The notes beneath the pieces are model-generated. The model was not told the origin of the DNA, did no database searches, and was given only the letters and a program-made list of their open reading frames with translations. Shown here piece after piece: positions 6,718 to 14,460 of a stretch of 64,000 bases of DNA (the first letter of the stretch is position 1; every line of letters begins with the position of its first letter). Position numbers and translations under genes: made by a program. Source of the DNA: Escherichia coli 042 (GTDB lineage Bacteria > Pseudomonadota > Gammaproteobacteria > Enterobacterales > Enterobacteriaceae); assembly GCF_000027125.1 (NCBI RefSeq), contig NC_017626.1. The stretch is one strand, 5' to 3'.

Positions 6718-10546
<3,829 letters not shown>

Positions 10547-10841
10547 TTCCACATCCTCTTTTCTCAATTCTGTAAGTAGGAAGCCTGATTGGTTATGCGG
10601 CAGGCCTGGAGCGAGGATAGGAAGATGCGATCGGCAGAACATGACGACCCAATGGGATTCGTGATCGCTTTCATGCTTTTCGTTGGGCGGTAGAGATCTA
10701 CGTTTTCGCGAAAAAGTAGACATCTGTGAGCACTGGTACACAGCATCGAACACATCTTTAAAAAAAAGATTTTTTTTCAATCGATTAAGCAGAACTTGTG
10801 GGCGCATTACCCGGGCTTGCAGGCAAAAAAGAGATCTAGAG

Positions 10842-11558
10842 ATGATCTACAAAAGCATTGCGGAGCGGTTAAGAATTCGACTTAATTCCGCAGATTTCAC
10901 GCTAAACAGCCTTCTTCCCGGTGAAAAAAAGCTGGCGGAAGAGTTTGCGGTATCGCGGATGACCATCCGTAAAGCCATTGACCTTCTGGTGGCGTGGGGG
11001 CTGGTGGTCCGCCGCCACGGCAGCGGCACTTACCTGGTGCGTAAAGATGTATTGCATCAAACCGCCAGCCTGACCGGGCTGGTGGAGGTGTTAAAACGCC
11101 AAGGAAAAACGGTCACCAGCCAGGTGCTGATTTTTGAAATCATGCCTGCGCCTCCGGCCATTGCCAGCCAGTTACGGATTCAAATCAACGAGCAGATCTA
11201 CTTCTCCCGTCGCGTTCGTTTTGTGGAAGGGAAACCGCTGATGCTGGAAGACAGCTATATGCCGGTAAAACTGTTCCGTAACCTTTCGCTGCAACATCTG
11301 GAAGGGTCGAAGTTTGAATATATTGAACAAGAGTGCGGGATTCTGATTGGCGGTAATTATGAAAGCCTGACGCCGGTGCTCGCCGATAGACTGCTGGCGC
11401 GGCAAATGAAGGTAGCGGAACACACGCCACTGCTGCGGATCACCTCGTTGTCATATAGCGAGAGCGGGGAGTTTTTGAATTATTCAGTGATGTTCAGAAA
11501 TGCCAGCGAATACCAGGTGGAGTACCATTTACGGCGACTCCACCCGGAAAAGAGTTAA
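10842..11558 (+). CDS. yidP: GntR-family transcriptional regulator YidP
   Basis: ORF 10683..11558; start moved to ATG at 10842 ([10 protein letters not shown]...), giving 238 aa; N-terminal GntR HTH ([22 protein letters not shown]). Confidence 0.85.
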
Positions 11559-13951: not shown

Positions 13952-14365
13952 TTAGTTGATTTCGATACGGCGCGGTTTTTTCGCTTCCGGAATCACGCGT
14001 TCGAGATCGATATACAGCAGACCATTCACCAGGTTAGCACCACGAACATGAATGTTCTCAGCTAACTGGAATTTGCGTTCAAAGTTGCGTTCAGCGATGC
14101 CCTGGTACAGATAGGTGCGCTCTTTTTGTTCGTCGGCGTGAGCACCTTTCACCACCAGCAGATTATCCTGGGCGGTAATTTCCAGTTCGCTCTCAGCAAA
14201 ACCAGCCACAGCGATAGCAATGCGGTAATGGTTTTCGTCTACCAGTTCAACGTTATACGGAGGGTAGCCGCCATTACTCTGGCTCTGGTTGTTTTCTAAG
14301 TGGTTAAACAAACGGTCAAATCCAATAGCAGAACGGTAAAGCGGGGATAAATCAAAGTTACGCAT
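13952..14365 (-). CDS. ibpA: Small heat-shock protein IbpA
   Basis: ORF 13952..14371; start at [16 protein letters not shown] (14365), giving 137 aa. Confidence 0.93.
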
Positions 14366-14460
14366 AATCAATAGCTCCTGAAATCAGCGAGAATGTAAGA
14401 CCTTCCACAATGGACAGGTCAGGTAGCCAGAACACCCATCAGGCGCGTCCTCATCGGCTA
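14366..14460 (-). promoter_or_regulatory. ibpA 5' UTR (location of the described ROSE-like RNA thermometer)
   Basis: Leader between the sigma-32 promoter and the ibpA AGGAG Shine-Dalgarno; the thermometer assignment is from literature knowledge, and the fold was not computed. Confidence 0.45.

Follow-up and report, generated by a model that had tools for sequence, protein, structure and literature searches.

The perfect A/T inverted repeat between glvBC and yidP in Escherichia coli 042, namely A8-GA-T8 (AAAAAAAAGATTTTTTTT; positions 10760–10777 of the window, by which we mean the whole 64,000-nucleotide stretch of DNA under analysis), owes its symmetry to a single G-to-T change at position 10771, carried by one haplotype that makes up ∼7% of the E. 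coli genomes with the locus. The symmetry itself is probably incidental, and the tract is better read as AT-rich spacer and leader DNA that would act, if at all, through its composition rather than as a sequence-specific site. Two observations argue for this reading, namely (i) that the palindrome is a minority allele and (ii) that the AT-rich spacer in which it lies is poorly conserved, both of which point to ordinary DNA rather than to a regulator binding site. A false lead is thereby removed, in that an operator-like perfect palindrome turns out to result from an accidental change of one base and to occur in only a minority of strains. While the result for the palindrome itself matters very little, the comparison of loci usefully maps the uncharacterized glvBC/yidP control region: a CRP-like box is conserved alongside promoter-like hexamers, a palindrome of the form GTCTAC...GTAGAC is a concrete candidate for the YidP operator, and an AT-rich spacer of fixed length comes to light.

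Position and chance occurrence of the A8-GA-T8 tract

The tract resides in the 295-bp gap between the divergent genes glvBC (ATG at 10546, minus strand) and yidP (ATG at 10842), whose starts follow the annotation of the RefSeq genome NZ_CP042899, which has the identical sequence; the region is identical to that of E. coli strain CFSAN061763. As the initial annotation of this DNA had described, a perfect inverted repeat is present between the glv and yidP starts, with 8-nt A and T arms on either side of a 2-nt GA spacer. The sequence was real but misplaced by that annotation, since its coordinates of 10736–10775 began 24 nt too early and lost the last two T residues; the longer string that it quoted, ctttaaaaaaaagattttttttcaatcgatt, occupies 10756–10786. 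The arms can be extended imperfectly to 11 nt (TTTAAAAAAAA and TTTTTTTTCAA, 91% complementary). In dinucleotide-preserving shuffles of the 64-kb window, 0.14 occurrences of A8-NN-T8 with at most two mismatches were expected. Further, the window contains only four A-runs and seven T-runs of at least 8 nt, so that an A8 directly next to a T8 is not expected by chance. The A8-GA-T8 observation is thus real and goes beyond base composition alone. The features of the region are collected in Table 1.

Table 1. Genes, repeats, and conserved or candidate control elements around the tract (window positions; promoter, operator, and protein-binding labels are putative)
Feature	Position	Strand	Remarks
6-Phospho-alpha-glucosidase, family 4 glycosyl hydrolase	7608–8930	−	Intact
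glvBC, PTS EIICB	8930–10546	−	Intact; PTS_EIIC, PTS_EIIB
−10-like TATCCT, putative glvBC promoter	10614–10619	−	TATTCT, TATGCT, or TATCCT at one fixed offset in 67 loci
CRP-like box CGTGA-N6-TCATG	10660–10675 (center 10667.5)		GTGA...TCA pattern in 67/67 loci
O1, 34-bp palindrome, AGAGATCTACGTTTTCG / CGAAAAAGTAGACATCT	10692–10725		82% complementary; conserved
−10-like TACGTT, putative yidP promoter	10699–10704	+	Inside the left half of O1
AT-rich spacer with the tract	10726–10825		Poorly conserved; not alignable between genera
Alternative inverted repeat ACATCTTT-A5-AAAGATGT	10752–10772		Perfect with G10771, broken by T10771
A8, left arm	10760–10767		A8 in most E. coli alleles
GA between the arms	10768–10769		Invariant in all E. 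coli alleles read
T8, right arm	10770–10777		T/G polymorphism at 10771 makes or breaks the perfect palindrome
IHF-like core TTTCAATCGATTA	10775–10787	+	12/13 against WATCAANNNNTTR; lead only
O2, AGAGATCTAGAG: yidP Shine-Dalgarno fused to a GTCTAC-type half-site	10830–10841	+	
yidP, GntR/HutC-family regulator	10842–11558	+	GntR E 6.8e-21, UTRA E 1.2e-30

Allelic variation of the tract within E. coli

The glvBC-yidP gap was found in 4278 of 5426 complete E. coli genomes. When positions 10735–10800 were compared by blastn, 290 of these 4278 genomes (6.8%) matched the window exactly, and 3967 differed from it at one to three positions. All 15 of the nonidentical alleles that we read, which include those of K-12, an O157-like strain, O139:H1, and a divergent allele (83% identity), have a G at 10771 and therefore carry A8-GATG-T6. 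T10771 was seen only in the window haplotype, and in FORC_069 the base at 10771 is the sole difference from the window across the whole gap. The G is also present in EBJ003, GF4-3, and 2017C-4109 (alleles L004, L005, and L007), strains in which both glvA and glvBC are intact. The initial annotation had named the absence of the palindrome from other strains with an intact glv locus as the outcome that would speak against it, and this is the outcome that our conservation check returned. By parsimony, T10771 probably arose within E. coli as a G-to-T change; in E. albertii, the aligned column at 10771 is a T, at a place where the alignment is weak. A single substitution separates the perfect palindrome from an ordinary AT-rich stretch, the common allele being A8-GATG-T6.

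Other changes to the two runs are rare. A shortened A7 occurs in two genomes (L009 and L089), AAAAATAA takes the place of A8 in two more (L008 and L090), and single genomes have either a T7 after the G or a T-to-C change within the T run; sequencing errors in homopolymers could account for the 1-nt length variants. The tract tolerates substitutions and 1-nt length changes. The A8 run is fairly stable across E. coli alleles. Alleles L088 and L091 do not keep the alternative repeat ACATCTTT-A5-AAAGATGT, and neither of the two inverted repeats is kept in divergent alleles or in E. albertii. Across 14 alleles, we counted 21 polymorphic columns per 100 nt in the spacer (10726–10825), 7.1 in the CRP-like box and O1, and 2.8 in the glv leader, which makes the spacer the most polymorphic part of the gap in a sample biased toward the tract, most alleles having been picked by queries centered on it. 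The yidP ribosome-binding site showed zero polymorphism in the same number of E. coli alleles.

The tract has two homopolymers of 8 nt, which some genomes carry as A7 or T7, and this could suggest a contingency locus, in which the runs slip and switch expression; the perfect inverted repeat could suggest a cruciform extruded by supercoiling. We hold either to be extremely improbable. Homopolymer tracts in promoter spacers are known from phase-variable genes in Neisseria, Haemophilus, and Bordetella fim, and the tract resembles them in having 8-nt homopolymers, which a weak minus-strand promoter candidate (see below) would use as its spacer. Unlike in those systems, the length of the tract is essentially fixed in the 4278 genomes, with a 66-nt match in nearly all of the rows sampled from them; among 60 evenly sampled rows, ∼3 had 65 nt (one lineage) and one had 67 nt. 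The rare variants, A7 and T7 in a few lineages, look clonal or may have arisen in sequencing, and phase variation was discarded on this length distribution. As for a cruciform, the arms comprise only 8 bp of A-T, and the DNA hairpin of the A/T repeat in the window has a folding energy of −3.1 kcal/mol (z −0.9), with the centroid structure unpaired. Moreover, the symmetry that a cruciform would need is missing in 93% of strains. The alternative repeat of the G allele forms a DNA hairpin of −5.7 kcal/mol (z −2.7). RNA hairpins at the tract are weak (−2.3 and −4.5 kcal/mol, z about −1), its folding energies as DNA or RNA being no better than those of shuffled sequences, a search of Rfam at a permissive E-value returned zero matches, and a scan of 10450–10950 found no intrinsic terminator. 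Cruciform, RNA hairpin, and terminator readings were rejected on these folding energies.

Conserved control elements and the candidate YidP operator

To place the tract within the control region, we compared the loci retrieved by a YidP search with one genome per species, which gave 67 usable loci from other Enterobacterales (Escherichia albertii, Citrobacter, Klebsiella, Raoultella, Kluyvera, Kosakonia, Buttiauxella, Cedecea, Mangrovibacter, Proteus, and others). All 67 have the divergent glvBC/yidP arrangement, and four blocks are conserved in them, namely the CRP-like box, a glv −10-like hexamer, the GTCTAC palindrome, and AGAGGTCTAC. The promoter, start-site, and operator assignments proposed for this region all build on conservation and geometry.

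The CRP-like box, which has the cross-species form CGATTCGTGATCGCTTTCATGG, agrees at 7 of 10 core positions with TGTGA-N6-TCACA and is a candidate for binding by CRP. On the glvBC side of it, the −10-like block (TATTCT, TATGCT, or TATCCT) is the best conserved minus-strand promoter position in the 67 loci. If TATCCT is the glv −10 element, glvBC transcripts would start near 10607, and the CRP-like box would be centered near −61.5, which is the classic class I position of CRP. On the yidP side, TACTTT is fixed in its offset in 52 of the 67 loci and, except for the reverse complement of the glv −10 block, is the top plus-strand promoter position for conservation. The conservation of TACGTT/TACTTT may, however, only reflect the operator half-site in which it lies. 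With TACGTT as the −10 element, yidP would start near 10709–10711, and the CRP-like box would then fall near the class II position.

The GTCTAC...GTAGAC palindrome O1 keeps a constant offset from the CRP-like box in all 67 loci and has the cross-species form TTGTCTACTTTTT...AAAAATAGACAT. The core of the NagR/DasR dre site, which is GTGGTCTAGACCAC and in which NagR contacts guanines (PMC4333415), recurs in the GGTCTA half-sites of O1. We consider O1 the probable YidP operator. A second element with this type of half-site, O2, stands directly before the yidP ATG, where AGAGGTCTAC is nearly invariant in ∼60 species. A possible third half-site, CCCTAC near the glv start, was set aside for its varying distance to O1 (130–138 bp, with outliers up to 196), as was a second CRP-like site, TGTGA-N6-GTACA at 10725–10740, which is polymorphic in E. 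coli and absent in E. albertii. In the literature that we searched, which covered yidP, glvC together with H-NS, and the E. coli glv genes, we found no report on the regulation of the glvBC/yidP gap, and the supplementary start-site data for EDL933 mention neither yidP nor glv.

The initial annotation had proposed the A/T palindrome itself as a possible operator for YidP, which would bind it as a dimer. The idea draws on a perfect inverted repeat in a divergent region next to the gene of a GntR-family regulator with a UTRA domain, an arrangement that GntR/HutC operators such as the NagR/DasR dre sites share. However, dre sites are read through guanines, whereas the arms of the tract are pure A/T and lack G/C bases of the kind that HutC-family proteins read. 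Further, of the 4278 E. coli genomes with the region, no more than 290 have the perfect palindrome, and it is absent from intact-locus strains and from all other genera, without a counterpart in the 66 other species that share the glvBC/yidP arrangement. The dre-like GGTCTA half-sites of the region are found not in the tract but in O1 and O2, and O1, conserved in the 67 loci, is a far better candidate. An operator function for the palindrome is hence highly improbable, and we do not retain this part of the annotation.

Promoter and UP-element readings of the tract

A strict sigma-70 consensus scan of 10450–10950 found no promoter, and in a weight-matrix scan the maximum for the gap was about 6 bits, against 9.7 bits for lacP1 under the same model. 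Against this background, we examined two ways in which the tract could be part of a core promoter. In the first, TAAAAA on the plus strand (10759–10764) would serve as a yidP-proximal −10 element, with a yidP start near 10771, at the site where other genera conserve tTAttt..aTGTAaT. In the second, TTGAAA (10780–10775) and AAAGAT (10759–10754) on the minus strand would serve as the −35 and −10 elements of a glv-directed promoter, with the A/T runs as its spacer and the length of the tract tuning its strength. The latter pair, with its 15-nt spacer, is the top minus-strand candidate in the gap (5.5 bits), the conserved aTGTAaT occupies the same columns as the E. coli ATGTTTT, the region of the tract melts most easily in the gap, and A7 and T7 variants do occur. 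The tract-touching candidates nevertheless score poorly (1.9 to 5.5 bits), TAAAAA lacks the final T, and the minus-strand spacer is short at only 15 nt. Moreover, the stacked scores at TGTAAT across 32 species average 0.95 bits with no conserved −35, promoter-like elements elsewhere in the region are better conserved, and the length variants are rare and look clonal. With the strict scan empty as well, we regard a core promoter that involves the tract as unlikely.

An UP-like element, which the initial annotation had also suggested, would require the A/T tracts to contact the C-terminal domain of the RNA polymerase alpha subunit upstream of a glv or yidP promoter. UP elements of the rrnB P1 type have an A/T-rich consensus and are positioned at −40 to −60. 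The tract resembles them in its A/T-tract composition and lies in a divergent promoter region, but on neither strand does a credible promoter place it at −40 to −60. No acceptable −35 element was found at 10782–10800 on the plus strand or at 10738–10755 on the minus strand, where one just downstream of the tract would be expected. From the putative starts described above, the tract would instead occupy about +50 to +67 of the transcribed yidP leader and would lie about 153–170 bp upstream of the glv start (−153 to −170). We therefore give an UP-like role hardly any credence.

The AT-rich spacer across species

The spacer between O1 and the yidP ribosome-binding site (10726–10825), which is probably part of the yidP leader, differs in length between species. 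The distance from O1 to the yidP ATG is 46–47 nt in 25 species, 100–101 nt in three, 119 nt in Escherichia, and 123–124 nt in Proteus, while 32 species share a length of exactly 121 nt. The segment that bears the tract is absent from the 25 species of the first group, whose spacer is ∼75 nt shorter. An A5+...T5+ arrangement of any kind occurs in the O1-ATG segment of only 3 of the 67 loci. Between genera, the only alignable block is tTAttt..aTGTAaT...TTttaa...AAAc...GGTT, which the 121-nt group shares. When the sequences are anchored on the ATG, the common E. coli ATGTTTT shares columns with the aTGTAaT that is conserved in these 32 species, and G10771 aligns with the conserved G; the palindromic T allele loses that G, and the T10771 substitution might thus not be neutral.

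AT content in the 32 species with the 121-nt spacer peaks at 80–87% at −70 to −60 from the ATG, and the E. coli tract, at −82 to −65, coincides with this peak. Mean predicted curvature in the same group shows a small peak of 26–27 degrees at the AT peak, as against ∼50 degrees at O1. Of the tract position, these species keep the AT-richness only. Given the conserved AT-richness and the fixed 121-nt length, the stretch may have a real structural or protein-binding role.

We propose that the tract represents, in E. coli, an AT-rich stretch of the ∼120-bp spacer between two conserved control parts. One flank of this spacer would comprise the CRP-like box, the glv promoter, and O1 overlapping the likely yidP promoter, and the other would comprise the yidP ribosome-binding site. 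Any role of the tract would then be compositional, with the middle of the spacer being AT-rich, easily melted, and modestly curved.

IHF-like core and the possibility of a hinge

Directly at the right arm of the tract lies a sequence that resembles the consensus for IHF, WATCAANNNNTTR (Table 1). The H' site of lambda attP, a well-known IHF site, carries an upstream A-tract, and the E. coli sequence is alike in that its core is preceded by A/T-rich DNA: the A8 run ends 7 nt upstream of the core, and the T6–8 run abuts it. We considered that the stretch could be a nucleoid-protein site or hinge, with IHF bound at TTTCAA-N4-TTA or with HU or Fis at the apex of a loop, where the bend would join O1 (center 10708.5) and O2 (center about 10835.5) for bridging by YidP. 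Several observations fit a hinge: (i) while 83 single-mismatch matches to the IHF consensus per 64 kb correspond to 0.38 expected per gap, only 0.055 are expected when an adjacent A/T run is required; (ii) the polymorphisms at 10781 and 10782, as well as the differences in E. albertii, all fall within N4, with TTTCAA and TTA kept; (iii) exact consensus matches in the Proteus loci stand 69 nt ahead of the ATG, as compared with 67 nt for the E. coli core; and (iv) the O1-O2 midpoint, 10772, lies inside the tract, at the same midpoint as the AT peak of the 32 species with the fixed 121-nt spacer.

Other observations weigh against it. The sole mismatch hits the usually conserved A of WATCAA, and one-mismatch matches of this kind are frequent by chance. 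No such match is found at this position in Klebsiella, Raoultella, and Kluyvera, and most genera have none; the site is not conserved outside Escherichia and Proteus. The spacer is absent in 25 species, i.e., in a third of the species. Further, the spacer-length classes (55–56, 109–110, 128, 130, and 132–133 bp) showed no significant clustering in helical phase (about p = 0.17). Even if the stretch were a hinge, the palindromic symmetry would be irrelevant to it. Taken together, an IHF site or hinge is doubtful; if real, it would be a further instance of architectural DNA at work in a repressor loop, here with natural alleles that differ at the apex.

A related and quite unlikely possibility, modeled on the GalR loop with HU at its apex or on other loops with IHF, is that the AT-rich stretch would form the flexible apex of a ∼128-bp YidP repression loop between O1 and O2, perhaps with the help of a bending protein at TTTCAA-N4-TTA. 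Were this so, the apex alleles (G or T at 10771, A7 or A8, and T6 to T8) would tune the geometry of the loop, and E. coli lineages would differ in how strongly the glv alpha-glucoside PTS operon and yidP are expressed at the basal level.

Stability and predicted curvature of the tract

That the tract is easily melted, as the initial annotation had held, is borne out by nearest-neighbor stability, which places it among the least stable 1.3–1.9% of the 18–30-bp windows and makes it the least stable part of the gap. It lies within 10750–10795, which is 76% AT and the most AT-rich part of the gap.

Its description as intrinsically bent holds in part. A4T4 repeats are reportedly curved and T4A4 repeats straight, according to Hagerman, and curved DNA is known upstream of bacterial promoters. 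The tract resembles curved A4T4 DNA of this type, in that an A-tract is followed by a T-tract in AT-rich DNA of a promoter region, with the center of A8 at 10763.5 and that of T8 at 10773.5, i.e., 10 bp apart. Both runs exceed 4 nt, they are repeated in phase with the helix (about 10–11 bp), and their AnTn orientation is the one that the models below return as curved in calibration. Unlike A4T4 repeats, it has only two runs, each of 8 nt, as compared with calibration tracts of 4 to 6 nt. We carried out the curvature prediction that the annotation had proposed with three dinucleotide wedge models, which were calibrated on curved A4T4 versus straight T4A4 repeats (58–80 degrees for the calibration repeats). 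The models predicted a moderate bend of 27–30 degrees per 30 bp, which is in the 88–90th percentile of the window. Stronger bends are predicted elsewhere, and the bend of the tract is below both that of O1, 60 bp away, and that of the G10771 allele, which is predicted to be more curved than the T allele (36–43 degrees). The strongest predicted bends of the gap are at 10705–10710 and 10818–10820.

A candidate YidP operator in the glvBC-yidP gap

The 295-bp gap between the divergent glvBC and yidP genes was compared across 67 Enterobacterales loci with this arrangement, which were found by a YidP search with one genome per species. The palindrome at 10692-10725 offers a concrete operator candidate for YidP, a regulator that is so far uncharacterised; its GTCTAC...GTAGAC halves hold a fixed position and are kept in all 67 loci. 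Within the conserved part of the gap, predicted curvature peaks at this palindrome.

Sequence elements of the glvBC-yidP gap (window positions)
Feature	Sequence	Position	Strand	Remarks
-10-like hexamer	TATTCT/TATCCT	10614-10619	glv	Conserved, at a fixed offset
CRP-like box	CGTGA-N6-TCATG	10660-10675		Kept in 67/67 loci
34-bp palindrome	AGAGATCTACGTTTTCG / CGAAAAAGTAGACATCT	10692-10725		GTCTAC...GTAGAC halves kept in 67 loci
Second CRP-like sequence	TGTGA-N6-GTACA	10725-10740		Within the imperfect palindrome CTGTGAGCACTGGTACACAG
Element at the yidP ribosome-binding site	AGAGGTCTAC (E. coli form AGAGATCTAG)	10830-10841		Directly 5' of the yidP ATG

The element preceding the yidP ATG is almost unvarying in ~60 species, a degree of conservation that exceeds the needs of a Shine-Dalgarno spacer, and it looks like a putative additional operator half-site overlapping the ribosome-binding site. 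The GTCTAC-type half-sites at 10694-10699, 10832-10837, and 10845-10848 read GATCTAC or AGATCT in Escherichia, and all three therefore carry Dam methylation sites (GATC). Most other genera have the form GGTCTAC.

Spacers between the palindrome and the yidP start codon (window 10726-10841; loci L012-L079 of the comparison) come in discrete length classes: 46-47, 100-101, 119, 121, and 123-124 nt. In 32 species the spacer measures exactly 121 nt despite largely diverged sequence, which suggests a constraint on length. Within this spacer, the region of E. albertii (L011) homologous to 10750-10785, where the window has the A8-GA-T8 palindrome, contains a longer, different perfect inverted repeat, ACATTGAAAA-ATATCTTA-TTTTCAATGT; both species thus have dyad symmetry here, with differing arms and spacers.

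CRP-like sequences and putative promoters

The distance between the conserved CRP-like box and the -10-like hexamer fits a putative glv promoter under class I CRP control. For a putative yidP promoter inside the 34-bp palindrome, this box is close to the class II position. The second CRP-like sequence, together with its imperfect palindrome, is polymorphic in E. coli at 10722 and 10734, and is missing in E. albertii.

Decay of the locus in E. coli

Many E. coli lineages show ongoing decay of the glv/yidP locus (window 7608-11558), as seen in alleles L002, L003, L006, L008, L009, L010, L090, and L091. The lesions comprise glvA frameshifts (K-12, FORC_069, 2014C-3050, and 32-4), an internal stop in glvBC of K-12, yidP frameshifts (HKUOPY1 and MLI023K2), an ISVsa5 (IS4-like) insertion at ~10748 in MB53, and an 87-bp deletion at ~10575-10662 in VTB96935v. 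Of 5426 E. coli genomes, 1148 lack the gap sequence.

Other features of the window

In a duplex-stability scan, the least stable and most AT-rich DNA of the window clusters at ~47800-53600, and also at 36200 and 59700; this DNA may be a horizontally acquired island. At ~14359-14431 (7811-7883 of locus L001), in the 5' region of ibpA downstream of yidE, the RefSeq annotation gives a ROSE RNA thermometer, a known element separate from the A8-GA-T8 palindrome.
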